Part shown: positions 15,615 to 46,874 of the stretch, piece by piece | Layout of the letters: every line of letters begins with the position of its first letter | Numbering within the stretch: position 1 is the stretch's first letter | Source: Parvibaculaceae bacterium | Lineage (GTDB): Bacteria; Pseudomonadota; Alphaproteobacteria; RS24; CBDDDD01 | Length of the DNA stretch: 64,000 nucleotides | Assembly: GCA_965226465.1 (NCBI GenBank) | Contig: OZ245362.1 | Location: 571,258-635,257, forward strand | Direction of reading: 5' to 3' | Notes under the pieces: model-generated | Seen by the model: the letters and a program-made list of their open reading frames with translations, nothing else | Told to the model about the DNA's origin: nothing | Databases searched by the model: none | Program-made: the position numbers and the translations under genes

Positions 15615-17462
15615 ATGAGTTTCCAGATCCATATGTGGATTACATTTGCAGTTATCTTATCTGCGATGATTGCTTTTGCTTTAGAGCGTCTTCGTATGGA
15701 GATAATCTCCCTGCTTATTATCATCACATTAATGCTGGTCTTTTATTTCCTGCCCTTAGAAATAGAGGGCAAGAATTTATTAAATGCCGAAGTCTTTTTG
15801 CGTGGTTTTGGCAATCCTGCACTTATTTCTGTGATTGCCTTATTAATTATGGGTCAAGGGTTATTCCATTCTGGTGCCTTGGAGAGTGTAAGCAAGAGCC
15901 TAGTTAAGCTTGCAAGCAACCGCCCTTTTCTGGCTCTTGGATTTATCTTTCTGTTAGCAATTATAACAAGCATGTTCTTAAACAACACGCCTGTTGTAGT
16001 GATGTTTATTCCCATCCTCTCTGCCGTAGCTTTGCGTAGCAAGCTAGATGCCTCTCAGGTAATGATGTCTTTGAGCTTTCTATGTATTCTTGGAGGATTT
16101 ACCACGCTCATTGCCTCCTCTACTAATTTGTTGGTAGCAGGCGCAGTAGCAACCCATACAGAAATACCCCCTATTGGCTTTTTTGACTTCACCCTTCCAG
16201 GTCTTTTTCTGGCAGGGGTAGGCTCTATCTATGTATTTCTTATCATGCCGTTTCTATTTCCCAAAAGGGATAAAAAAAATACGACAGAGACGGTAAAAAA
16301 AGAACTGCCCTATATTGTAGGCATACGCTTGCGTTATGGCGACAAGCTTGTTGGCATAAAAGCGGAACAGGGAAAGTTTCCAGGTCTGGAAACAGCAGAT
16401 ATAAAACTTATTCTTCGTGATAATCAAAAAATACTCCCTCCCTTTGACAATGTTACATTAAAGACAGGGGACAAATTATCCGTTCTTGTTACCCGAACAA
16501 CACTTACCGATGCATTAAAATCAAGCTCCAATCCTTTGGGAGAAATTATCACCCGCTCTGGTAAAAGCCTACTTCACGCATTGGATGAGGAAGAGCAAGA
16601 AAGCTTTGCGCCCACATTGGCAGAAATTGTTGTTGCTCCAGGCTCTTCCATGTCAGGGCGGACGATAAACCAGCTTGCTTTTGAGTTTGAAACCCATTGC
16701 CGCATTTTAGGTATCCAAAGGCGTGGACGCATACTTCATGAGGATATAAGCATTATGCGCCTTCAACCAGGCGATGAACTGCTTGTTTTGGGGAAGGAAA
16801 ACCACGTACAGGAGCTTCGTAATAATCATGATGTATTATTATTGGAATGGTCAACTACCGAGCTTCCTAATTTTTCTCATGCCGTCAAAGCAAGGCTTAT
16901 TTTTCTTGGTACTATTCTGCTTGCTGCATTTAACATTGTGCCCATTGTTATTGCTGCTCTTTGTGGTGCAGCGGCAATGTTGCTTAGCAATACCATTACG
17001 CCCCGTCAGGCTATTCGGGCAATAGATATTCGTATATTCCTTATCATTGCCGCCTCTATTGCCATGGCAAGTGCATTGGAAATAACAGGGGGAGCAGAAT
17101 TTTTAGCGCATAGCTTTATCAATGTGTTTGCAAACGCCCCCATTCCAGTAATTCTTTCTATCTTTTTTCTGATTACCGCCCTTATGACGAATATATTAAG
17201 CAATAATGCAACCGCCCTCCTCTTTACGCCAATTGCAATTAATCTATCCCAGCAATTAGGCATTGACCCTATGGCATTTATCTTTGCGGTTCTCTTTGCC
17301 TCTAACTGTTCCTTTGCAACACCCTTTGCATATCAAACAAACCTGCTTGTGATGGGTCCGGGCAAATATCAATTCCGTGATTTTTTACGAGCAGGTCTTC
17401 CGCTTGTAATTATCATCTGGATAACCTATTCCCTCTTTGCCCCTTATTATTATGGTTTATAA
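15615..17462 (+). CDS. SLC13/DASS-type anion permease with central tandem TrkA-C (RCK_C) domains
   Basis: 615 aa with two polytopic halves (NNTPVVVMFIPI and SNNATALLFTPIA hairpin-type motifs) that flank two soluble repeats (LKTGDKLSVLV and LQPGDELLVLG). AAGGAGG sits 5-11 nt upstream of the ATG. Confidence 0.78.
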   Translation: MSFQIHMWITFAVILSAMIAFALERLRMEIISLLIIITLMLVFYFLPLEIEGKNLLNAEVFLRGFGNPALISVIALLIMGQGLFHSGALESVSKSLVKLASNRPFLALGFIFLLAIITSMFLNNTPVVVMFIPILSAVALRSKLDASQVMMSLSFLCILGGFTTLIASSTNLLVAGAVATHTEIPPIGFFDFTLPGLFLAGVGSIYVFLIMPFLFPKRDKKNTTETVKKELPYIVGIRLRYGDKLVGIKAEQGKFPGLETADIKLILRDNQKILPPFDNVTLKTGDKLSVLVTRTTLTDALKSSSNPLGEIITRSGKSLLHALDEEEQESFAPTLAEIVVAPGSSMSGRTINQLAFEFETHCRILGIQRRGRILHEDISIMRLQPGDELLVLGKENHVQELRNNHDVLLLEWSTTELPNFSHAVKARLIFLGTILLAAFNIVPIVIAALCGAAAMLLSNTITPRQAIRAIDIRIFLIIAASIAMASALEITGGAEFLAHSFINVFANAPIPVILSIFFLITALMTNILSNNATALLFTPIAINLSQQLGIDPMAFIFAVLFASNCSFATPFAYQTNLLVMGPGKYQFRDFLRAGLPLVIIIWITYSLFAPYYYGL

Positions 17463-17475
17463 AAAGATAAGTCTT

Positions 17476-18570
17476 ATGAGCAGTAAAAAGATAAAACGCC
17501 GTGATTTTTTAACAAAAACAAGTCTGCTTGCAGGTGCAACCGGACTTTCCCTTCCGAATATTGCTCGTGCACAGAGCAAACGCCGCCTTAAAATGGTGAC
17601 AACATGGCCAAAAAACTTTCCCGGTTTTGGAACAAGTTGTGAAGCATTAGCCAGACGGGTAAAGCTTATGAGCAAGGGCAGTTTAGAGATTAAAATCTAT
17701 GCTGCCGGCGAGCTTGTAGGTGCTTTTGAAGCCTATGATGCAGTTTCTACAGGAGCGGCAGATATGTATCATGCTGCAGAATATTATTGGCAAGGAAAAT
17801 CCCCTGCTTTTAATTTTTTTACTGCCGTTCCCTTTGGCATGACCCCTCAGGAGATAAATGCTTGGATATATTGGGGCGGGGGACAAACATTATGGGATGA
17901 GCTTTCCTCACGCTTTAATATACGCTCCTTTTTATGCGGAAACTCGGGAATGCAAATGGGGGGCTGGTTTAACCGTGAAATAAACCAGATTGAAGATTTT
18001 AAGGGGCTAAAAATAAGAATCCCCGGGCTTGGTGGAGAATTATTACACCGTCATGGTGCTTTGGCTGTATCTCTGCCTGGTGGAGAAATATTTCCCAGCA
18101 TGAAAAGTGGTGCCATTGATGCAACTGAATGGGTGGGACCATGGAACGACCTTGCCTTTGGATTATATCAGGTAGCAAAATTTTATTACTGGCCCGGCTT
18201 TCATGAGCCGGGTCCTGCAATCTCTGCAGGTATTAATTTAGAAAGCTGGCAAAGCCTATCCACGGAGCATCAGGAAATATTGCGAACAGCTATGGAAGCA
18301 GAAAATAATAAAATGTATACTGAGTATGAATATAGAAATGCTGTCTCTCTCAAAATATTAATTGAAAAGCATAACGTAAAACTGCGCCGTTTTTCTCCTG
18401 AAATTTTGAAAACTCTTAAGAAAACTTCAGAAGAAATATTAGAAGAAATTGGTTCCCATGATAATATTTCCCACAAAATTTATAAAAGCTTTCGTGAAAA
18501 TATGGCACGCAGCAAAGAATGGACAAAAATATCCTCTATTGCATATTATCAAACAAGGGATGGGGAATAA
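17476..18570 (+). CDS. dctP: TRAP transporter substrate-binding protein (DctP family, TakP-like) with a Tat-type signal
   Basis: KRRDFLTKTSLLAGATGLSLPNIARA is a twin-arginine signal. MVTTWPKNFPGFG and AAGELVGAFEAYDAVSTGAADMYH resemble DctP/TakP-type binding proteins. I prefer the ATG at 17476 over the track start at 17437, which overlaps the upstream gene. Confidence 0.82.
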   Translation: MSSKKIKRRDFLTKTSLLAGATGLSLPNIARAQSKRRLKMVTTWPKNFPGFGTSCEALARRVKLMSKGSLEIKIYAAGELVGAFEAYDAVSTGAADMYHAAEYYWQGKSPAFNFFTAVPFGMTPQEINAWIYWGGGQTLWDELSSRFNIRSFLCGNSGMQMGGWFNREINQIEDFKGLKIRIPGLGGELLHRHGALAVSLPGGEIFPSMKSGAIDATEWVGPWNDLAFGLYQVAKFYYWPGFHEPGPAISAGINLESWQSLSTEHQEILRTAMEAENNKMYTEYEYRNAVSLKILIEKHNVKLRRFSPEILKTLKKTSEEILEEIGSHDNISHKIYKSFRENMARSKEWTKISSIAYYQTRDGE

Positions 18571-18572
18571 AT

Positions 18573-19079
18573 ATGAAAACCCATCAGGCTTTGCATTATA
18601 CAAATCAAATTAATCGTAAAATTGGAAATATAATATGCTGGCTTCCCCTGATAATGGTTTTGCTACAATTTACTATTGTTATTATGCGCTATGTTTATGG
18701 CACGGGATCTCTCATTCTACAGGAAAGCATGCTATATATGCAGGGATTGCTTTTCATGCTGGCAGCGGCAGAAACCTTACGCCGTGATGCACATGTGCGA
18801 ATAGATATTTTTTATGGTAAAAAGAGTAAGAAGTTTCGTCTATGGGTAGATTTGCTGGGAAGTCTATTTTTCTTGCTGCCTTTTTCTATTTTCACTTTTA
18901 TTATTTCCTATCCCTATATACGCCTATCATGGATGGTACGTGAAGGCTCCCGTGAAGCCAGCGGGATTGAAGCAGTATATTTGCTAAAAACCTCTATCCT
19001 GTTATTTGCTCTTTTGCTGGGATTACAAGCCATTTGCTCTATTGCTTCTTCTATTTTGCATCTAAGGAGGCAAGAATAA
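18573..19079 (+). CDS. dctQ: TRAP transporter small permease (DctQ)
   Basis: About 168 aa with four TM segments, located between dctP and dctM. The ATG at 18573 lies 2 nt after the dctP stop. Confidence 0.78.
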   Translation: MKTHQALHYTNQINRKIGNIICWLPLIMVLLQFTIVIMRYVYGTGSLILQESMLYMQGLLFMLAAAETLRRDAHVRIDIFYGKKSKKFRLWVDLLGSLFFLLPFSIFTFIISYPYIRLSWMVREGSREASGIEAVYLLKTSILLFALLLGLQAICSIASSILHLRRQE

Positions 19080-20621
19080 ATGGGACTTGATATTCTCATG
19101 TTTCTGGCTGCGTTCCTGCTCTTAATGGCAGGATTTCCTGTTGCCTTTACGCTTGCCGGTGTCGCCCTTATTTTTTCATTTCTGGGCATAATGACAGGAA
19201 GCTTTGACAGTAGCTTTTTGCAGGCATTTCCCCAAAGAATTTTTGGCATTATGAATAATGAGATATTGCTAGCGATACCTTTATTTATTTTCATGGGAAG
19301 CCTTTTAGAACGCTCCCGCTTAGCAGAAAGTTTACTTACAGGCATGGCATATCTCCTGCGCCATGTACGAGGAGGCTTAGGCATATCGGTCACCATTGTC
19401 GGTGCCTTGCTGGCGGCATCTACAGGAATAGTGGCGGCAACAGTGGTAACAATGGGGCTTCTTTCCCTGCCTAGCCTTATCAAGCGGGGATATGACCCTG
19501 CTTTCGCAACAGGTACGATTAGCGCAGCAGGAACATTAGGGCAAATTATTCCTCCCTCTATCGTGCTTATTCTGCTTGGAGATATTATCAGCAATGCCTA
19601 TCAGCAATCTCAATTGCAAAGGGGTATATTTGCACCGGAGACCGTTTCTCTAGGAGAGCTTTTTGCAGGAGCCTTGCTGCCAGGATTAGCTCTGGTAGGC
19701 TTATATATTCTTTATCAATTTTCCATGAGCCTGTTCCGCCCTCACCTATGCGGTCATAATCAAGTAAATGAAGATAGCGAACTGAACATGCAAACAGTTC
19801 TATTAGGGCTTATCCCTCCTATATCCCTTATCATTGCTGTTCTGGGATCTATTCTTATGGGATTAGCTACCCCTACGGAAGCAGCCGGTGTCGGTGCACT
19901 TGGTACCATATTGCTTGCAGGCATGCATATTCGTAAGAAGGAAAATTTTCTTCCTCAAGCAGGTATTATTTCCCTGTTGATTTTACTGGCAATGGGAATA
20001 GCTTTTGACTTCAAATTATTACAAAGCCCTGCCCATCCCCTATTTTGGCTATCTGTTATTTGCATGGCTATATTTTTTGTAAGCCTTGCCTTCACCCTTA
20101 TCGCATTATGGAAAAGCAATATGCTGCGTGAAGTTATGCACAAAACTATGGAGATGAATGCCATGGTTTTCACTCTCCTTATTGGTGCCGCCCTTTTTAG
20201 TCTAGTCCTTCGTGGCTTTGGCGGAGATGAAACCGTGCAATCTCTGCTGGAAAACATGCCGGGGGGAGCAATGGGTGCCATGATTGGAGTGATGTTGGTT
20301 ATGTTTATTATGGGCTTTTTTCTGGATTTTATAGAGATTACTCTTGTCATTGTCCCTCTTATCGCACCCATATTGCTAAGCATGGGTTATGACCCTATAT
20401 GGCTTGGTGTCATGATTACCATTAATCTGCAAACTTCTTTTCTTACGCCCCCCTTTGGCTTTGCCCTTTTTTATCTGCGTAGCGTTGCACCAAAAAGCAT
20501 AAAAACGGCGGATATATATAAGGGGGTTATTCCGTTTATTTTTATTCAATTATTGATGTTGGGGCTATTGGCGTATTTCCCACAAATGGCATCTTTTTTA
20601 CCGGAATTGATATTTGATTAG
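19080..20621 (+). CDS. dctM: TRAP transporter large permease (DctM, long 513-aa form)
   Basis: Polytopic protein abutting dctQ (stop 19079, start 19080). The DctM-like segments IPLFIFMGSLLERS and TPPFGFALFYL are present. Confidence 0.88.
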   Translation: MGLDILMFLAAFLLLMAGFPVAFTLAGVALIFSFLGIMTGSFDSSFLQAFPQRIFGIMNNEILLAIPLFIFMGSLLERSRLAESLLTGMAYLLRHVRGGLGISVTIVGALLAASTGIVAATVVTMGLLSLPSLIKRGYDPAFATGTISAAGTLGQIIPPSIVLILLGDIISNAYQQSQLQRGIFAPETVSLGELFAGALLPGLALVGLYILYQFSMSLFRPHLCGHNQVNEDSELNMQTVLLGLIPPISLIIAVLGSILMGLATPTEAAGVGALGTILLAGMHIRKKENFLPQAGIISLLILLAMGIAFDFKLLQSPAHPLFWLSVICMAIFFVSLAFTLIALWKSNMLREVMHKTMEMNAMVFTLLIGAALFSLVLRGFGGDETVQSLLENMPGGAMGAMIGVMLVMFIMGFFLDFIEITLVIVPLIAPILLSMGYDPIWLGVMITINLQTSFLTPPFGFALFYLRSVAPKSIKTADIYKGVIPFIFIQLLMLGLLAYFPQMASFLPELIFD

Positions 20622-20648: not shown

Positions 20649-23345
20649 ATGCGTGGTTCTCGTCGTTCTTTTTTGACCTTATTAGGAGGGGTTGCAGGCT
20701 CTTTTTCTTTAGGAGCTATTGCTCCCTCATCATTATTTGCACAAGAGGGAATAGAAAAGATTGATAATTTTTCCCGACCAGACGGCCATTCTTTAGGCAA
20801 TGCATGGGAGGGATTAAATCCAGGATATTGGAAAATAGAAAATAAGAAATTGCGCCGTCAGCTAAAAACCATTGGTGAGCGGGCACGCAAGACAGGTTTT
20901 CCTTTTCATTATGAAACCCATAAGAAAGGCAAAATGGAAACCCATTATGACCCCTCTCTTCCTCTTGGCATTTTATATGCCCGTGAATGGTTTTTTGGCG
21001 ATGGTTATGAGATAGAAATGGATGTCAGAGTAAAAAATCTGACCCCTGAAACCATCCCTGAAGGTGATGATAAAAATTGGAAAATGTATAATCCGGATTG
21101 GGGAGCTATTGGTATTTGCTTTGGTGCCAAAACACAATTTGAAAGCTTTTACCCCTCCACCAATGCCTCTCTTATGCTGATATTAAAAGAAAGCGGAGAG
21201 TTTGGTTTTATGCGTCATACAAATGATGCTTTTGAGAAGATTGGAAAAATTGGCAGGCTTAGAAGACCATTACGAAAAAATGACAAGCTCAATTTTCGTC
21301 TGCAAATTTCCCCTCGTGCAAATAATCAAGCACGCATTGTCGGTACACTTAATCACAATCGGGAAACACCTATACGGATTGTTTATAATAGTGAAGACAG
21401 GAAAAAAGAGGCGATAGGATATAGCGGTATTGCAGCACGCGGATTATTGGATATTGAGATTGATGATATCCATACAAATATTTCTCCCCGCCGTAAGCTA
21501 AACGCTCCTCTTAATGAATGCCATGTCTGTTATGCACTTGGTGACAGCTTGCGGGAAGAAAATGGTGAATATAAGGTCCGCTTCGTATCCCTATTTCGCA
21601 ATAATGGAAGAAGGGCTTTCATTCGTGTCAGTGAAGAAGAAAACCCTAAAGGAGGTTGGAAGCGTGTGCCTGTAGCGGGGAAAGCCAGCATTATTAATAA
21701 TGATTTCCGTCGCAATAGTGCCATTATTGATGTAAAGCTTCCTGCCAATCCTGCAGAAAAAACACTTTATTATACCATTTGGAAAGATGGTCAAAATGTC
21801 ACCGCAGACCCCCGCCCCGGTACAGAAAGCGTTGGCATGGGTACAGGCTTGGTCGGAGATATTCCCTCAAATGGGCAATATGTTGGCAGATTGCCAAAAC
21901 TTACCGCTCCCTATCGTATTTGCGGGCTAAGTTGCCATGCAGTGCATACCGCCCGCCATTCCGACCTTCCCCAATCCGGTATAAAGGATAGAAAAGAAAA
22001 CATTCCCCTACCCTTTTTTGTCCATGACCAGCCCTGCTATGGTGCCTTTGAATATTTGGAAGATTATGAATTTCAAATTATGCTCTGGGATGATGATGTG
22101 TTTTATATGGAGCTTTTGCTCTATCCTCCCAGCACAGATGATGCCTATAGGTTAGTAAATCATACACTTGGTGGTCCTACAACTCGTTGGCAGATGATGC
22201 GCCACTGGAATGTTCTCAATCCTGGAGACCATGATTTTGGTATGGATGATATAAAGGGTCCTGAACAAATATTGCTCCGTAATAAGAATAAACTTGGACA
22301 GGATATTGAATATCTTCAACGCAATTTTCAAATTGTCTTTCATGTAATGATGGGAGAAGAAAACCCGACAAAAACAGATAATCCAAAACGCTGGCGTAAA
22401 TGGAAAATGCCAAATCACGACTTTTCCCTTATGATTTTAGATAGCAGGCTTTGGCGAAACTCTCAGGATACGGATATTTGGCAGAACCATGGCTGGGCAG
22501 GCATTAAAAATCTTTACTCCCGCCATGACCCGACACGTTCCCTATTGGGTGAAGAGCAATTTAGCTGGTTACAAAACCAATTGGCTACAGATAGCTCTCC
22601 CCTTATTTGTCTTACGGGGTTAAACAGCATGCATAGTATTTTTTCTAATAGGGATGGCGAATTTAAGGAGCGTGACCGAGTAGTGGCAGATTTTGCCTCA
22701 TGGGTTTCGGCAGGCGTGGATAGAGTTCTGCACCTTATGAGTGGGCGCAAAGGCGTGGTAAGCGTTGGAGGAGATGTCCATGTCGGCTCCATTATAAAGA
22801 ATGAGGATTTGAACCTTTATGAGTGCTGCTTTGGACCCATTGGGCGTTGGGGCGGAAGGCGTCCTAAGCCTGGATTTGGAAGAAAAATGGAAGATTATGA
22901 AGGAAGGAAAATTACTTGCCATGCTTTTTACCAGCAGGAATATAATGACCCTGATTTACGCCCCCTTCGCGGTCCCTCCTATTGGAACTTTTTGGAGATG
23001 GTTTTTAATCCACTTGAAAATGGTGGTGAAGTAGACCTCGCCATACGCAATATTGTTGATAAGCCTGCTATTGAACCTCGTGGAGGCGGATGGGTAAAGC
23101 GTGCACGTGCCAATGAAATGGGGCGTGAGATAAGCGCACGCCTTCCAAAGATTAAAACACTGGCAAATGCAGATATTTTATTCCTACGCCCTGACAGCTC
23201 ACCAATCACAGGCACAAGAAGTAATGATAAGGGACTTATTACTCTAAAGGGTCTTATAGACATCGCGCCAAATACCACAATCCTTATGCTTGCCCGTGCT
23301 GAAGGCAAGACAGAAAGCAAGCTTATACGGACAACATCTCCTTAG
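20649..23345 (+). CDS. Tat-exported PhoD-like metallophosphatase family protein with a large N-terminal extension of unknown fold
   Basis: Twin-arginine signal [25 protein letters not shown]. The ordered motif positions resemble PhoD: [50 protein letters not shown] and [10 protein letters not shown]. It starts 27 nt after dctM. Confidence 0.58.
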
Positions 23346-25585
23346 CCCTCTTTCTTTGGTGCTTCCTGCCAGATTAACATGCCCAATGTTCCGTTAGAGG
23401 GGAATCCTTTAGGTCGTTTTCTTCCTGCTTGAGCACGCTTTCCTTGCCAATCATCAAGCTTGTTAAAAGCTTGCTCACGGCCAGCACTGTCATATATTTT
23501 CAGCCCTTCCTTTTCTATAAAACTTCTAACATCAGCTATCCCCCCTTGCTTATAGCTTTGCAATTTTATCCCTTTGCCACGCGTCATTTGGGGTATTTCT
23601 TTTATAGGAAATATCAGTAATTTTTTATTTTCTCCTAATACCGCCAAACTATCCCCTATAGCAGGAACACAAATTGCAGCCTCCTCCTCGCTAGCCAGAT
23701 TTAATATCTGCTTTCCAGCACGCCTGGTGCTAATAAGCTCACTTTCAGGCACAATAAATCCATATCCCTTATTGGAAGCAACCAGCAGAGAACGTTTTGA
23801 ATTATGGGAGAAAATCTGTAGGATATCCTCACTCTCATCCAACTCAATCATCAAACGTATTGGCTCGCCATTTCCCCTACCACCAGGAAGCTTGTTCACA
23901 TCCAAGCGATATGCTCGCCCATTTGACGCAAAGAGAACCAATATATCTCTTGTATAAGCATGCAGAACCAATCCCTCTTTATCTCCGGTTTTATATTTAA
24001 TTTCCTTATTTTCTAAATGTCCCTTCATCGCCCGTATCCAACCCTTTTCTGAACAGATAATGGTGACAGGTTCCTGTTCAATAAGAGTATTGGCATCAAT
24101 CTCCATTTCTTTTGGAGCCTCCTCTATTTTACTGCGTCTTTTTCCAAGATCGGTTTTTTTACCAAACTGCTCCAATAATAATTTTATCTGTGAGGATATT
24201 TCTTCCCACTGCATTTCATCTGATGCCAGCAAGGTTTTTAGGCGTTTTTGTTCCGCTTTATGTTTTTTGTGCTCAGCACGTATGGTTTCCTCTTCAAGCT
24301 TTCGTAATGCACGAAGGCGCATATTGAGAATAGCCTCGGCTTGGCGTTCCGTAAGCTTAAACTTCTTGATAAGGGAAGATTTAGGGTCATCTTCCTCGCG
24401 GATGATATGAATAACTTCATCAAGGTTCAGATAAGCAATGAGATAACCTTCCAATATTTCAAGCCTTGCCTCTATCGCATTAAGGCGAAAACGGCTTACC
24501 CGCCCCAATACCTCCTGGCGGTGCTCAAGCCATGCCTTCATTATCTCCTTCAGCCCCATAACGCGCGGCGTTTGGTTGGCGTCAAGCACATTCATATTAA
24601 CGCTTACCCTTACCTCTAAATCGGTCAGGCGAAACAGCATGGCCATAAACTGCTCAACATCTACCGTTCTGCTTTTAGGTTGCAGAATAAGGCGAATATC
24701 CTCGGTTGATTCATCCAGAATATTTTCCAGAAGTGGTAACTGCTTTGCATGTATGAGGTCGGCAATTTTCTCAATTAAACGGGCTTTCTGCACCTGATAG
24801 GGTATTTCTGTTATTACGATTTGCCAACCACCACGTGTGGTATCTTCCTTTTTATAACTTGCCCGCAGGCGTAACCCTCCCTTCCCAGTTTCATAAATTT
24901 GCTGTAATAATTCAGCATCCTCTAAAATAACACCCCCTGTTGGAAAATCGGGAGCAGGCACGAAACTCATAAGTTTTTTTAAACTTGCATTGGGTGCCTT
25001 AATAAGATGAAGAGCACATTTACAAAGCTCTACTATATTATGTGGTGGAATATTTGTTGCCATGCCGACAGCAATGCCGCTAGCTCCATTAGCCAGAAGA
25101 TTAGGAAAATTGCCCGGCAATATAACAGGCTCTTTATCTTCCCCATCATAGGTTTCTCTGAAATCTACGCTATCTTCATCAATATTGGATAGCAAAAGAT
25201 GAGCAACAATTGTAAGCCTTGCTTCCGTATAACGCATAGCTGCAGCATTATCACCGTCAATATTTCCAAAGTTTCCCTGTCCATCTATTAGCGGATATCG
25301 CACGGCAAAATCTTGTGCCAAACGCACCAAAGCATCATATACAGCTTGGTCACCATGAGGGTGGTAGCGTCCAATGACATCACCTACCACGCGGGCAGAT
25401 TTCTTAAAGCGGTTTTCAGGATTGAGCTTTAACTGATGCATTGCATAAAGTAGCCTTCTATGCACAGGCTTTAGCCCATCACGCACATCAGGCAGAGCAC
25501 GGTGCATAATTGTTGCCAATGCATAGGATAAATAGCGTGTCTCCAGTGCTTGGCGTAGTTCTACTTCAGAAGCTATTTTACTCAT
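23342..25585 (-). CDS. parC: DNA topoisomerase IV subunit A
   Basis: [25 protein letters not shown] and [18 protein letters not shown] are present. The roughly 750-aa length fits ParC rather than GyrA. The track start at 25612 is TTG. The ATG at 25585 (MSKIASE) is preferred, but the choice is uncertain. Confidence 0.88.
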
Positions 25586-25612
25586 GGAGGCGTTATAGCA
25601 AGATTCTATCAA

Positions 25613-43115: not shown

Positions 43116-43206
43116 TGGCGGAGAGGAAGGGATTCGAACCCTCGATACGCGATGAACGTATACTCCCTTAGCAGGGGAGCGCCTTCAGCCACTCGGCCAC
43201 CTCTCC
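43116..43206 (-). tRNA. tRNA-Ser (anticodon GCU), CCA encoded
   Basis: The reverse complement reads GGAGAGGTGGCCGAGTGGCTGAAGGCGCTCCCCTGCTAAGGGAGTATACGTTCATCGCGTATCGAGGGTTCGAATCCCTTCCTCTCCGCCA. It has a 7-bp acceptor stem, an anticodon loop CU-GCU-AA, a long variable arm hairpin and a GGTTCGAATCC T-loop. Confidence 0.92.
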
Positions 43207-43306: not shown

Positions 43307-44218
43307 CTATTTACATTTTTTCTCAAGTCTATGAACAGCTTCAGCAAAATCTTCTCCCATACGCAGATAGCTTTTTGATGTGTAATGCAAATTATCGGGT
43401 AGCATTTTATAATCATCAATTTCTGAAACAAGGTGAGCGCAGACATCATTTTCAGCAAATTCCTTCTGTTTCTCCTGCACAATATGCCCATAGGCAAGCT
43501 TTGGCTTCCCTCTTTTAGTGATGGCATTGCTTGTTTTGCCTATCACCACAGGAATATCATCAAGACGCAAAGCAGCACGCAGGGCATTCATGAGGCGCTG
43601 TAAATTGTCCTTATACGCATTGGAAGATTCCACCCAACGAGAATCCGCCTCACCCTGCATCCAGATAATACCGGAAGGGATAAGCGTATCACGCTCTCCA
43701 TCACCATCAATATCGGATATAGCAAAAGCATTGCGGATGGTATCAAGAGCATAATCATATTGATTAAGCCCTTCAAAATCCTCTGCCCAATTATTACGCT
43801 CTTTTGTGTTGTAAAGCGCAGTAGCCCCTCTGGCATATTTAATAATTGCAATTTTGCTATTGGGGTTCAACGCAGCGATTGTTTTTCCAAAGCTCAATTC
43901 TGCCCCAAAGCGTTTTACATATATATTGCTTTTGCCATTGGAAGAAAATCCACCGCCATGCCCCTCTCTCAGCTTGCTCCACTTGCCCTGCCCTGCCCGA
44001 AACTTTTTGGGGTTATAAGGCATATTATCAACACCGGTCGTGCCATGAAAAATCATCACATTGTTAGCCTTACCCTTATATGCACGAGGCAAATCTTCAT
44101 TCTTACCAAGCCCCACCATATTGGACTGCCCTGCAAGCAGATATAACTTATATTCTTCTGCCTTTATGGGCAAAGCCAGGATTGAGCAGAAGAAAATAAG
44201 GGACAAAAAAAATCTCAT
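43307..44218 (-). CDS. Exported SGNH-type carbohydrate esterase, sialate O-acetylesterase (SASA/DUF303) family, paralog 1
   Basis: It has a signal peptide (ALPIKA-EE), the nucleophile motif LLAGQSNMVGLG, WMQGEADS and a C-terminal D..LHYTSKSY. Confidence 0.72.
   Translation of the reverse strand: MRFFLSLIFFCSILALPIKAEEYKLYLLAGQSNMVGLGKNEDLPRAYKGKANNVMIFHGTTGVDNMPYNPKKFRAGQGKWSKLREGHGGGFSSNGKSNIYVKRFGAELSFGKTIAALNPNSKIAIIKYARGATALYNTKERNNWAEDFEGLNQYDYALDTIRNAFAISDIDGDGERDTLIPSGIIWMQGEADSRWVESSNAYKDNLQRLMNALRAALRLDDIPVVIGKTSNAITKRGKPKLAYGHIVQEKQKEFAENDVCAHLVSEIDDYKMLPDNLHYTSKSYLRMGEDFAEAVHRLEKKCK
43653..43741. repeat. 89-nt tract about 95% identical to 44577..44665 (paralog-to-paralog)
   Basis: Hand alignment gives 4 mismatches in 89 nt, whereas the flanking paralogous sequence is much more diverged. 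Confidence 0.8.
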
Positions 44219-44230
44219 AATCCAGCTCCT

Positions 44231-45175
44231 TTATTTACAGCTTTTTTCTAACATATAAACTGCCTTAGCAAAGGCAATACCCATTTTAATGTATCCCTCA
44301 GAACTATAATGAGCAAGATCGGGGCGCATTTTATAAGTATCGGTTTCCTCTACCAGATGAGCACAAACATCATTTTTTGCAAAAGCCCTCTGCTCATTCT
44401 TGACCACATGCCCATTTTTTCTTTTTGGCTTTCCCTGTTTGGTGATGGCATTGGTAGTCATGCCGATAATAATGGGCAAATCATCCCTATGTAAGGCTGC
44501 CCGCAATAGACCCATAAGATGGTGCAGGTTCTCCTCATAGGCTTTTGCAATTCTTATGTCCCCGGAATCAGATTCGCCCTGCATCCAGATAATACCGGCA
44601 GGGATAAGCGTATCACGCTCTCCATCGCCATCAATATCGGATATGGCAAACGCATTGCGGATGGTTTTCAGCGCATAATCATATTGGTTTATGCCCTCTG
44701 CTCTCTGATCCCAATTATTACGCTTAGGCTTGCCTTTCCGCTTAGGCATATTATAGAGGGAAGACCCCCCACGGGCATATTTGATAATCGCAATTTTCTG
44801 GTTGGGGTATAGCTTTTCCAATGTTTGCCCAAAGCTGAGCTCCGGTCCGAAGCGTTCGCCCAGATAACTATTTTTTCCATCTGACATGGAACCCCCTGCA
44901 TATCCGGGGCGTAATTTCCCCCATACCCCCATAGCGGCTATGCCTCTTAGCTTGTGAACAGGCTTATTATCATCACCTGGATTTCCTCTAAAAATCATAA
45001 CATTTTCTGAGATATGGTTATATTTTTTCGGCAATTCATTAATAAAACCCACCCCGACCATATTAGATTGCCCCGCCAGAAAATAGAGCTTGTAAGTTTC
45101 TGCCTTTGCAGAAAACGGGATACTATAAAAAAAGATAGGCAGCAAAATTACTGAAAAGATATTTTTTATTAGCAT
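44231..45175 (-). CDS. Exported SGNH-type carbohydrate esterase, SASA/DUF303 family, paralog 2
   Basis: It has a signal peptide (PFSAKA-ET), FLAGQSNMVGVG, WMQGESDS and D.AHYSSEGY. The ATG at 45175 (MLIKNIF) is preferred over the track start at 45193, which overlaps the sulfatase. Confidence 0.72.
   Translation of the reverse strand: MLIKNIFSVILLPIFFYSIPFSAKAETYKLYFLAGQSNMVGVGFINELPKKYNHISENVMIFRGNPGDDNKPVHKLRGIAAMGVWGKLRPGYAGGSMSDGKNSYLGERFGPELSFGQTLEKLYPNQKIAIIKYARGGSSLYNMPKRKGKPKRNNWDQRAEGINQYDYALKTIRNAFAISDIDGDGERDTLIPAGIIWMQGESDSGDIRIAKAYEENLHHLMGLLRAALHRDDLPIIIGMTTNAITKQGKPKRKNGHVVKNEQRAFAKNDVCAHLVEETDTYKMRPDLAHYSSEGYIKMGIAFAKAVYMLEKSCK
44577..44665. repeat. 89-nt tract about 95% identical to 43653..43741 (paralog-to-paralog)
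   Basis: This is the partner of the repeat above. Both copies encode TIRNAFAISDIDGDGERDTLIP(S/A)GIIWMQGE. Confidence 0.8.
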
Positions 45176-45185
45176 GTGATTTCCC

Positions 45186-46874
45186 CTACACACAGCCGGA
45201 AAGTTTATTGGTAGCTATCGTCACCACATCACTTTGACGATAACCATACCGTATCGCTTTGGCTTTTATTATTTCTTCCATAACAATCGGCTCTTTATAA
45301 AGTTGCCATTGTTTTTTGCCTTCTTCATCAAGAAAATGATATCCGATGGAGGCTCCCTTTGTTTTACTTTTCAACATAATCTCTCCCCCCTTTGTAAGAC
45401 AAGCTATTGGCTTTGCAGTATGTGGCTGAACATTATCAGGCCATATTGTAGCAAGAAAGTCTTTTTCTGGCAAAGCGCTGAGGTCGCCTATACGCATTAC
45501 CCATTCTGCCAATGCCATGCGTAACCGTTTCATTTGTGGAGCAAATTTAGGATTATTGGCAAGATTATGCACTTCATCAGGATCATTTTTTCTATCATAA
45601 AGCTCCTCTTCAGGGGAAGGCGTTGCAAGAAACTGCCTTTGACGTTCGGATAAAGACCCCTGTTGGAACTTTCGGTTAAGCTCCGCCATGATGGGGTTCA
45701 TATCCTGATATCCGATAGAGGCTATCCGAGGCTGTGCAGGCATATAGTTGCGAATATAGGTAAAGCGTCCGTCATATACCGCCTTAATGCGCCCGACTTG
45801 CTCGTCTAAACGGTCAGCGGCGGCATAGATATATTTGCGGGGGGGATCTTTTTTATCTCCAATGATAATGCGCCCCTGCATCCATTTGGGAACATCTATT
45901 CCGGCCAGAGATAAAATTGTCGGCGCAAGGTCAACAAAACTGACAAGATTCTTATCTTTTGTGCCGCCTCCCCTTCCATCAGGAAAGCGGATAAGCAAAG
46001 GCACATGCAAACCGGAATCATAAAGCGTACGCTTTGCACGAGGCAGCCCATCACCATGGTCAGTAGTAAAGATAATAATGCTGTTCTCAAAATATCCCTT
46101 TTTGCGCAAATCTTGGAGAAGAGCCCCTATCTGCTTATCCAGAAGCGCAATATTGTCATAATGACGGGCAAGGTTTTTTCGTGTAGCGGGACTATCAGGA
46201 TAATAAGCAGGCACTTTGACGGAGGCAGGGTCTGTGAAATAGGTTTTTTTTGCATCTGCCTTTTGGTTTCGTGGCAACACCTTTTTTGCAGCAGGATGTG
46301 CCTTACTTCCATTAGGAGGCCATGTATAGCTTTCATGAGTGATATTGTAATTTATCATTGCAAAAAATGGTTTTCCCGAAGGGACATTTCCGATATTGGC
46401 TTTCCCACTATTTTTATCCCAGACTGTAAAGGGATTTCCAAACTGGTAATCCGTCTTGCTACGGTTCAACGTATAATATCCAGCACGGCGCAACAGCTCA
46501 GGAAAAGCTTTGACATAAGCAGGAGGTATAGCCTCATAGGGCTGCCCCTCTTCCATATTCACCCCAAAGCTGGATGTACGCATATGCATCGTGCCAAGCG
46601 TTTGCTGATGCACACCGGTTATGAGCGAGGAGCGACTTGGCGCACATACCCCTGCCGTAGTAAATGCATTGGTAAAAAGAACGCTTTCCTCCGCCAACGC
46701 ATCAATATTAGGCGTATGCGCAAGCTCATCCCCATAAGCACCAATACGAGGGCTCAAATCTTCCGCCGTTATAAGAATAATATTAAGAGGTTTTTGCCCA
46801 GATTTTTCTGACGTTTCCGGCAAACAAGCAAATAAAAACAGAAAGCAGATTAAGATTGAAAAATATTTATGCAT
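45186..46874 (-). CDS. Cys-type sulfatase (formylglycine-dependent arylsulfatase family), probable lipoprotein
   Basis: Lipobox-like FLFAC-L. It has the N-terminal metal site ILITAEDL, the formylglycine motif CAPSRSSLITG, and TTDHGD. Confidence 0.85.
   Translation of the reverse strand: MHKYFSILICFLFLFACLPETSEKSGQKPLNIILITAEDLSPRIGAYGDELAHTPNIDALAEESVLFTNAFTTAGVCAPSRSSLITGVHQQTLGTMHMRTSSFGVNMEEGQPYEAIPPAYVKAFPELLRRAGYYTLNRSKTDYQFGNPFTVWDKNSGKANIGNVPSGKPFFAMINYNITHESYTWPPNGSKAHPAAKKVLPRNQKADAKKTYFTDPASVKVPAYYPDSPATRKNLARHYDNIALLDKQIGALLQDLRKKGYFENSIIIFTTDHGDGLPRAKRTLYDSGLHVPLLIRFPDGRGGGTKDKNLVSFVDLAPTILSLAGIDVPKWMQGRIIIGDKKDPPRKYIYAAADRLDEQVGRIKAVYDGRFTYIRNYMPAQPRIASIGYQDMNPIMAELNRKFQQGSLSERQRQFLATPSPEEELYDRKNDPDEVHNLANNPKFAPQMKRLRMALAEWVMRIGDLSALPEKDFLATIWPDNVQPHTAKPIACLTKGGEIMLKSKTKGASIGYHFLDEEGKKQWQLYKEPIVMEEIIKAKAIRYGYRQSDVVTIATNKLSGCV

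Follow-up and report, generated by a model that had tools for sequence, protein, structure and literature searches.

A PhoD-like putative esterase with a lectin-like domain, and the sulfatases that recur beside its homologs

The window analysed here is a stretch of 64,000 nucleotides (nt) of a Parvibaculaceae bacterium (assembly GCA_965226465.1, contig OZ245362.1, positions 571,258 to 635,257 of the forward strand). Directly behind the dctM gene of a tripartite ATP-independent periplasmic (TRAP) transporter it carries a gene for an 898-amino-acid (aa) protein, described in the initial annotation as an exported PhoD-like phosphatase coupled to that importer. The question raised by this locus is which kind of ester such an enzyme would cleave, and whether the transporter genes next to it are a guide to the answer. 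The open reading frame (ORF) was present as described, with an ATG start, and an identical protein is held by NCBI under accession MGI9392916.1 as 'alkaline phosphatase D family protein', from a metagenome-assembled genome (MAG) of the Parvibaculales (Alphaproteobacteria). The PhoD call is therefore ordinary in itself and already in GenBank; the sulfatase-linked, lectin-fused family offers a real, testable lead for sulfated-glycan degradation. The reading that we prefer, to which we give a probability of about 55%, is that the protein is a periplasmic PhoD-type Fe3+/Ca2+ esterase, probably exported by the twin-arginine (Tat) route and provided with a glycan-presenting lectin-like domain, which would work alongside sulfatases and outer-membrane importers.

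Fold, metal site and domain order

The Pfam PhoD family PF09423 matched the protein at 34.7 bits against a gathering cut-off of 27, the match being limited to residues 575-715, that is, profile positions 138-268 of 343 (131 positions). An AlphaFold2 model built from 37 homologs, with a mean predicted local distance difference test (pLDDT) score of 81.6 and a predicted template modelling score of 0.86, had as its best Foldseek match in the PDB the PhoD structure 2yeq_A (E 3.7e-13, alignment of 630 columns), followed by the purple acid phosphatase (PAP) of kidney bean, 4dhl_A (E 1.2e-8). An hhalign comparison of the family with a profile of 17 PhoD sequences gave a probability of 95.4% over 358 columns. 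The link to PhoD needed these indirect routes because neither the protein itself nor the family profile gave a match when PDB sequences were searched directly. These results support the assignment of the protein to the PhoD superfamily, in the PhoD/PAP lineage, and the profile searches leave its C-terminal region within that superfamily, as had been proposed. It is not an ortholog of Bacillus subtilis PhoD, since the NCBIfam PhoD equivalog NF058638 scored 15.2 bits against a cut-off of 1000. No sulfatase domain (PF00884) or CxPxR motif was found in the protein with Pfam, these being carried only by neighbours in other genomes.

All the motif strings quoted in the initial annotation were located by string search, at residues 4-14, 40-70, 427-430, 479-486, 526-531, 596-603, 632-641 and 707-713, and they are no chance matches, because none of the 37 aligned homologs, which come from several phyla, deviates at the key residues. 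Their PhoD counterparts, given in Table 1, were read from a reference sequence identical to chain 2YEQ_A. When PhoD alone or two PhoD sequences were used in hhalign, motif III was shifted by one residue, and the register of the 17-sequence profile, in which GDHD lies on DDHE, was adopted. Tyr210 and His438 of PhoD are taken by us to be ligands, from the PhoD/PAP motif alignment. The metal-coordinating residues of PhoD that have been probed by mutagenesis are C180, D207, D265, D266, N271, N272 and D436, and its Fe3+ is ligated by a tyrosinate (PMC4223295).

The equivalents of the Fe3+ site, Cys429, Asp483, Tyr486 and His711, were complete and invariant in all 37 aligned homologs, as were two equivalents of Ca2+ ligands, Asp527 (PhoD Asp266) and Asp709 (PhoD Asp436). 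The same invariance was found for Gly526, His528, Asp529, Asp533 and Asp534, the last two of which are probable counterparts of PhoD Asn271 and Asn272. The metal ligands are thus mostly kept, and the departures from the canonical motifs noted earlier are real as well, with an invariant GDHD where PhoD has DDHE. Judged from these alignments, the metal site is PhoD-like and not identical to that of PhoD; the identity of the metals would follow from this likeness. Two divergent representatives of the family, P0138 (929 aa) and P0146 (663 aa), carry Ser in place of Cys429, Gly or Asn in place of Asp483, Leu or Gly in place of His528 and GTG or NEH in place of DVH, and keep the remaining sequence, His430 included. 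Both look like pseudo-enzyme paralogs, and the window protein is not of that kind.

The N-terminal region of ~400 aa had been left unassigned. It has no Pfam match, in agreement with that view, but it splits into a ConA-like sandwich (residues ~35-285) and a PhoD_N-like sandwich (~290-410). The first of these is highly conserved (WESLNPGYW...GFPYHYETH...DPSLP, with the NFSRPDGHS... string at residues 40-70), all-beta and modelled with pLDDT mostly >85. With Foldseek it matched legume lectins and the jelly-roll lyases of polysaccharide lyase families PL36 and PL14 at E ~1e-6 and probability 1.0, in keeping with the earlier guess of a beta-sandwich or lectin-like module. The likeness is at fold level only, as no Pfam family and no PDB sequence match was found for this domain. 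Its identity with DUF1080/3-keto-disaccharide hydrolase was considered and rejected (hhalign probability only 7%, not significant). By its modelled fold, the domain may bind sugars.

In the second sandwich, residues 293-395 align at low confidence with residues 13-100 of the PhoD chain in hhalign, and the model has a beta-sandwich there; PhoD_N itself (PF16655) gave no Pfam match at E <= 1. The catalytic domain follows, and then a C-terminal sandwich of ~90 aa (~810-898), without a Pfam match, which had been overlooked in the earlier domain layout. The model has no helix past residue 698, and this sandwich stands where PhoD has a C-terminal helix as lid of the active site (PMC4223295).

Regarding export, the twin-arginine segment lies at residues 4-14, its RR pair is kept in 35 of 35 N-terminally complete homologs, and the signal-peptide region has pLDDT <50 in the model, as expected for such a peptide. 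B. subtilis PhoD itself is a known Tat substrate. The protein is thus probably exported to the periplasm by the Tat route, as its sequence suggests.

Family and gene neighbourhoods

A word-indexed search yielded full-length homologs of ~900 aa, with 46-54% identity, in more than 535 clusters, and 268 loci were found in species-representative genomes. The hosts are Acidobacteriota (mostly Bryobacterales, with many MAGs from sponges and soil), Planctomycetota, Verrucomicrobiota, Lentisphaerota, Bacteroidota, Rhodothermales, Balneolales and Calditrichota, plus a few Alphaproteobacteria. When 1.84 billion representatives at 50% identity were searched exhaustively with HMMER, only 184 matches were obtained at E <= 1e-3; the family thus forms a compact group, clearly separate from canonical PhoD, which is itself a very large family. 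Among the matches listed, ~5 were full-length representatives (911-964 aa) and the rest were fragments collinear with the profile; at most 34 weak matches outside those listed could be canonical PhoDs. No fusion to a sulfatase domain, which would be a Rosetta-stone signal, was found, no listed match being longer than 964 aa. Exact-sequence look-ups of the representatives P0001 and P0002 returned no record. By its sequences, this is a distinct, tightly conserved and uncharacterised family, with ~50% identity over at least seven phyla.

The gene neighbourhoods were analysed in 80 homolog loci, with up to 10 kb on each side, in which ORFs were called and clustered; sulfatase adjacency was scored in 78 of them, and lineage weighting was based on 24 lineages defined at 65% identity. 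The recurrent neighbour was a formylglycine-type sulfatase (PF00884 plus SGSH_C, with the CxPxR motif), which was directly adjacent in 31 of the 78 loci. Unweighted, a sulfatase occupied the position immediately upstream (-1) in 31% of cases (23/74) and the position immediately downstream (+1) in 13% (10/75), and both adjacent positions together gave 23.8% after lineage weighting. The frequency was ~9% unweighted and 16.1% weighted at positions ±2 to ±3, and 3.1% (19/606) unweighted and 5.0% weighted at four or more genes away. The enrichment of adjacent over far positions was thus ~5-fold after lineage weighting (Fisher p = 0.0012 weighted, 7e-13 unweighted).

Adjacent sulfatases were present in 11 of the 24 lineages, among Acidobacteriota, Verrucomicrobiota, Planctomycetota, Bacteroidota, Balneolales and Sphingobium, and 18 of 33 were co-directional with the family gene, many with gaps of 3-60 nt. 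When the 88 neighbours within two genes were classified over the 24 lineages, the sulfatase was the sole recurrent Pfam family (12 proteins), TonB-dependent receptors coming next (3). The adjacent enzymes resemble carbohydrate sulfatases, namely the Bacteroides arylsulfatase and GalNAc-6-sulfatase structures 7AN1 and 7ANA, carrageenan sulfatases and subfamily S1_8.

Individual loci place the gene in glycan-degradation surroundings. In Flaviramulus, one strand carries genes of glycoside hydrolase (GH) families GH95 and GH97, a Raffinose_syn/GH31-like gene, three sulfatases, the family gene, three more sulfatases, GLAA-B, two sulfatases and GH36. The order in Sphingobium is family gene, sulfatase, TonB-dependent receptor, sulfatase, SDR and MFS transporter; in a Cyclobacteriaceae genome the gene follows an ECF sigma factor, FecR, SusC and SusD, and in Robiginitomaculum it precedes a TonB-dependent receptor and a rhamnose mutarotase. 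In four Bryobacterales loci (L037 12626-14305 on the minus strand, L047, L050 and L057) the next gene downstream encodes an arylsulfotransferase (periplasmic ASST, PF05935), a second family of sulfate-ester enzymes beside the gene, unrelated to the sulfatases. In a Planctomycetota MAG, a 682-aa sulfatase-like ORF (L084 7905-10000, the same as L062 7943-9991) was called in our ORF scan, its end being 3 nt from the family gene. That 2.1-kb stretch is empty in the public gene calls and may hold an uncalled gene or a pseudogene.

The preferred reading can be put as a mechanism, in which water activated by a tyrosinate-Fe3+/Ca2+ centre would hydrolyse an anionic ester, while the lectin-like domain would hold the substrate, probably a glycan or a similar polymer. 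The ester would most likely be a phosphate mono- or diester, with a sulfate ester as a possible alternative. From its gene neighbourhoods, the enzyme, placed beside carbohydrate sulfatases and TonB/SusCD import, would help to break down polysaccharides, or comparable organic polymers, that are decorated and probably sulfated.

Several results weigh against this reading. Concerning the active site, PhoD Asp265 is replaced by the invariant Gly526, and Asp265 is essential in B. subtilis PhoD, where the D265A variant is inactive; N271 and N272 of PhoD fall in an hhalign gap beside Asp533 and Asp534, without confident alignment. For both reasons the metal site may differ from that of PhoD, and phosphate-ester chemistry is not guaranteed. 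Concerning export, the TIGR01409 Tat-signal hidden Markov model gave 13.8 bits, below its cut-off of 16.7, so that the Tat assignment rests on the SRRSFL motif and its conservation; the earlier claim of Tat export is thus supported by the motif and its RR pair but not by the profile. Concerning the neighbourhood, adjacency was seen in fewer than half of the lineages, and a single orthologous sulfatase partner was ruled out, as the adjacent sulfatases fall into at least 10 groups at 40% identity; because of this spread over at least 10 subfamilies and the lineages without adjacency, the sulfatase link is statistical and does not define a fixed module. Within the window, 22 kb separate the PhoD-like gene from the nearest sulfatase. 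Finally, no paper on a lectin-fused PhoD-like family was found in the literature.

The ester cleaved and the transporter block

The alternatives differ in whether phosphate or sulfate would be released and in the place given to the neighbouring genes. An unlikely but still credible one is that of an ordinary phosphorus-scavenging PhoD, a Pho-regulated phosphatase or phosphodiesterase acting on dissolved organic phosphorus, whose extra domains would be accessory and whose sulfatase neighbours would reflect general scavenging. The homology and ligands shared with PhoD, the Tat motif and the name given by NCBI are consistent with it, as are a TonB-dependent receptor and a phospholipase C located ~5-10 kb upstream of the gene in Sphingobium. 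An association of SusCD with phosphatases is also known in Bacteroidota. Nevertheless, no recurrent pst, phoU or phoBR genes were found among the 88 neighbours, and a Pho-box scan returned only background-level matches, none of them near the operon. The equivalog score (15 vs. 1000), the small number of weak HMMER matches that could be canonical PhoDs (34 at most) and the loss of one Ca ligand also argue against a canonical enzyme, and the ~50% identity over at least seven phyla, together with the fixed four-domain architecture, suggests a specific rather than a broad substrate.

A new kind of sulfatase, in which the PhoD-type Fe/Ca centre would cleave sulfate esters beyond the reach of formylglycine sulfatases, is quite unlikely, even if it would explain both the runs of sulfatases and the presence of ASST. 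The gene is enriched beside two unrelated families of sulfate-ester enzymes, S1 sulfatases and ASST; in Flaviramulus it stands in the middle of a run, with six sulfatases directly flanking it and eight in the locus; and its altered motif III (GDHD for DDHE) is invariant. SoxB is a precedent for a metallophosphoesterase fold that acts on sulfur oxyanion groups. On the other hand, the Fe3+ ligand set is the same as in a bona fide phosphatase, the literature yielded no paper tying a PhoD-type fold to sulfatase activity, and we know of no PhoD or PAP enzyme that is a physiological sulfatase.

The release-then-import pathway put forward in the initial annotation, in which a periplasmic enzyme would free an organic acid from a phosphorylated precursor for uptake by the TakP-like TRAP transporter, is very unlikely. 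The local arrangement is consistent with it, as the gene starts 27 nt past dctM, which stops at 20621, on the same strand and without a terminator-like hairpin between them, promoter and terminator scans being at shuffle background. The TakP-like assignment of DctP also stood (Table 1), and a protein of this type probably binds 2-oxo or monocarboxylic acids. The near-identical second assembly keeps the arrangement, and co-transcription of the gene with the CitMHS-TRAP block in this genome may occur.

Recurrent linkage of the homologs to TRAP genes, in contrast, was not seen: a tblastn search with DctP, DctQ and DctM against the 80 loci detected no DctP or DctQ and one weak DctM match, on the opposite strand. 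The two nearest DctP homologs on long contigs (L086 and L087; 61-62% identity) are encoded in a block that is syntenic with that of the window and composed of ALAD, the CitMHS-TrkA_C permease, dctPQM and, in one genome, an S8 peptidase; identity with the window is 51% for CitMHS and 57% for DctM. In both of these related alphaproteobacterial genomes dctM is followed by a small, unrelated ORF of 157-170 aa (L086 11149-11661, L087 11146-11619) and not by the PhoD-like gene, and the window arrangement recurs only in the near-identical second assembly. Since these syntenic blocks lack it, the PhoD-like gene is a lineage-specific addition to an older transporter block. In addition, the ~50% identity to homologs located inside sulfatase, GH and SusCD loci points to a function common to all of them that has nothing to do with keto-acid import. 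The proposed coupling of enzyme and transporter thus finds no support, in view of the gene-free CitMHS-dctPQM blocks, the near-absence of TRAP genes from the homolog loci and the sulfatase as the neighbour of the family. In the scenario that we favour, the gene would have become attached, in the Parvibaculales genome, to a conserved CitMHS-TRAP block of older origin, at its 3' end, without forming a conserved functional unit, and its position behind dctM is, from these comparisons, peculiar to this lineage. TRAP adjacency in this genome is therefore no guide for inferring the substrate of the PhoD-like enzyme.

A non-catalytic glycan-binding or scaffold protein is scarcely credible, because despite the large lectin-like domain and the existence of P0138 and P0146, which lost Cys429, Asp483, His528 and DVH, no aligned ligand is missing from the window protein or from any of the 36 other homologs in the alignment.

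Features of the window are listed in Table 1. The stop codons of the PhoD-like gene (TAG, 23343-23345, plus strand) and of the convergent parC (TAA, 23342-23344, minus strand) overlap, leaving zero intergenic space for terminators on either strand. No obvious Shine-Dalgarno sequence was seen before the PhoD-like gene, and no flanking repeats, mobile-element signatures or GC anomaly were found around it. The mechanical ORF starts of dctP (TTG, 17437) and dctQ (18519) overlap the preceding genes, and the NCBI models in the near-identical assembly start later, giving a DctP of 364 aa (~17476) and a DctQ of 168 aa (~18573). At 513 aa, the DctM of the window would contain an insertion of ~90-100 aa, since its match to the Pfam DctM model of 413 positions is split in two; the L086 and L087 orthologs are of similar length (517-518 aa). 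The permease lies at 5442-7256 in L086 and at 5470-7281 in L087, with an extra ATE-like or unannotated gene of ~245 aa between it and dctP. Its location upstream of the TakP-like TRAP genes pairs two different anion importers, a pairing kept in the two related genomes. The small 157-170-aa protein conserved in these genomes, absent from the window, has one N-terminal hydrophobic segment and matched no Pfam family. Because of the sulfatase and SASA-esterase cluster located 22 kb from the PhoD-like gene, the window genome does have genes for glycan desulfation and deacetylation.

Table 1. Coordinates of the PhoD-like gene, its domains and motifs, and other features of the window
Feature	Position	Strand	Remarks
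CitMHS/DASS-type permease	15615-17462	+	615 aa, two TrkA_C domains; upstream block
dctP, TakP-like	17476-18570	+	2hzk match, E 1.3e-79; upstream block
dctQ	~18573-19079	+	Upstream block
dctM	19080-20621	+	513 aa
Lectin-fused PhoD-like putative metallo-esterase, whole gene	20649-23345	+	898 aa; ATG start
Probable twin-arginine signal peptide	20649-20747	+	Residues 1-33: SRRSFL, hydrophobic core, LFA-QE
N-terminal ConA/legume-lectin-like beta-sandwich	20751-21503	+	Residues ~35-285; AlphaFold2 and Foldseek
Second beta-sandwich, PhoD_N equivalent	21516-21878	+	Residues ~290-410; low-confidence hhalign, AlphaFold2
Metallophosphoesterase catalytic domain, PhoD/PAP type	21879-23048	+	Residues ~411-800; alpha/beta
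Motif I, LSCH	21927-21938	+	Residues 427-430; Cys429 = PhoD Cys180 (Fe3+ ligand); His430 also invariant
LWDDDVFY motif	22083-22106	+	Residues 479-486; Asp483 = PhoD Asp207, Tyr486 = PhoD Tyr210
Motif III, with GDHDFG	22224-22250	+	GDHDFG at residues 526-531; Gly526 = PhoD Asp265, Asp527 = Asp266, His528 = His267, Asp529 = Glu268; Asp533/Asp534 probably = Asn271/Asn272
ILDSRLWR	22434-22457	+	Residues 596-603; = PhoD LDTRQYR
10-residue motif	22542-22571	+	Residues 632-641; = PhoD LLGKEQEQWL
Motif V, GGDVHVG	22767-22787	+	Residues 707-713; Asp709 = PhoD Asp436, His711 = PhoD His438
C-terminal beta-sandwich	23061-23342	+	Residues ~805-898; strands only, pLDDT >90 (AlphaFold2)
parC	23342-25612	-	Convergent to the PhoD-like gene
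tRNA	43119-43206	-	Sole match in the Rfam scan of the window
Sulfatase and esterase cluster	43307-46874	-	562-aa sulfatase (PF00884 plus SGSH_C), then two SASA-family carbohydrate esterases; beside the tRNA

If the preferred reading is right, the consequences reach beyond this locus. Sulfated glycans of algae and animals form a large, slowly degraded carbon pool, whose breakdown is not fully explained by the known enzyme sets. The family is well placed as a missing component, given its ~50% identity from Acidobacteriota to Bacteroidota, its lack of detectable close relatives and its recurrent company of sulfatases, TonB/SusCD importers and GH genes. It is possible, though unlikely, that it represents an unrecognised class in sulfated-glycan degradation present in at least seven phyla, either as a formylglycine-independent Fe/Ca sulfatase with the PhoD fold or as a lectin-targeted glycan phosphodiesterase or phosphatase that would let sulfatases and glycoside hydrolases proceed. 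Removal of phosphate and removal of sulfate would alike widen the chemistry assigned to the PhoD/PAP fold, and would correct an automatic 'alkaline phosphatase D' label that is counted as a marker of phosphorus acquisition (phoD) in marine and soil surveys.

Comparison with known systems

The closest known system is B. subtilis PhoD (2YEQ), an Fe3+/2 Ca2+ phosphodiesterase/alkaline phosphatase, which is the best structural match and has the same Cys-Asp-Tyr-His Fe3+ set. The motifs LDxRxxR, LLGxEQxxWL and GDVH are common to both, and the family protein also has a modelled N-terminal beta-sandwich before the catalytic domain and a probable twin-arginine leader, like PhoD. However, identity is only ~13-21%, and the family adds an N-terminal lectin-like domain of ~250 aa and a C-terminal sandwich of ~90 aa that replaces the lid helix of PhoD. 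It also has Gly for Asp265, GDHD for DDHE and SCH for SCQ, and its neighbours are sulfatases instead of tat or pho genes.

The plant PAP of kidney bean (4DHL), the second-best fold match, shares a tyrosinate-Fe3+ site and a Gly before the motif-III ligand (GNHE in PAP). In contrast, PAP has Asp where the family has Cys, and His, His and Asn for a transition-metal M2+ where the family has Asp ligands of the PhoD kind (PMC4223295). The seven invariant ligands of PAP (Asp, Asp, Tyr, Asn, His, His and His) are accordingly not matched as a set, with Cys for the first Asp, GDHD for GNHE and GDVH for GHVH.

Legume lectins and other ConA-like proteins (2PEL and 3ZVX, with the alginate lyases PL36 6KCV and PL14 5GMT) share the fold of residues ~35-285, at template modelling scores of ~0.45-0.55 when normalised to the target, whereas no relation at sequence level was found with Pfam or with hhalign against DUF1080 (7%).

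Lastly, the PhoD-type phospholipases D of Streptomyces (SchPLD; SaPLD, 9UYA) belong to the same superfamily and have a Cys-type Fe site. They lack the lectin-like and C-terminal domains, and no direct sequence similarity to the family was detected; they show nonetheless that diesters of larger substrates can be processed by enzymes with this fold.

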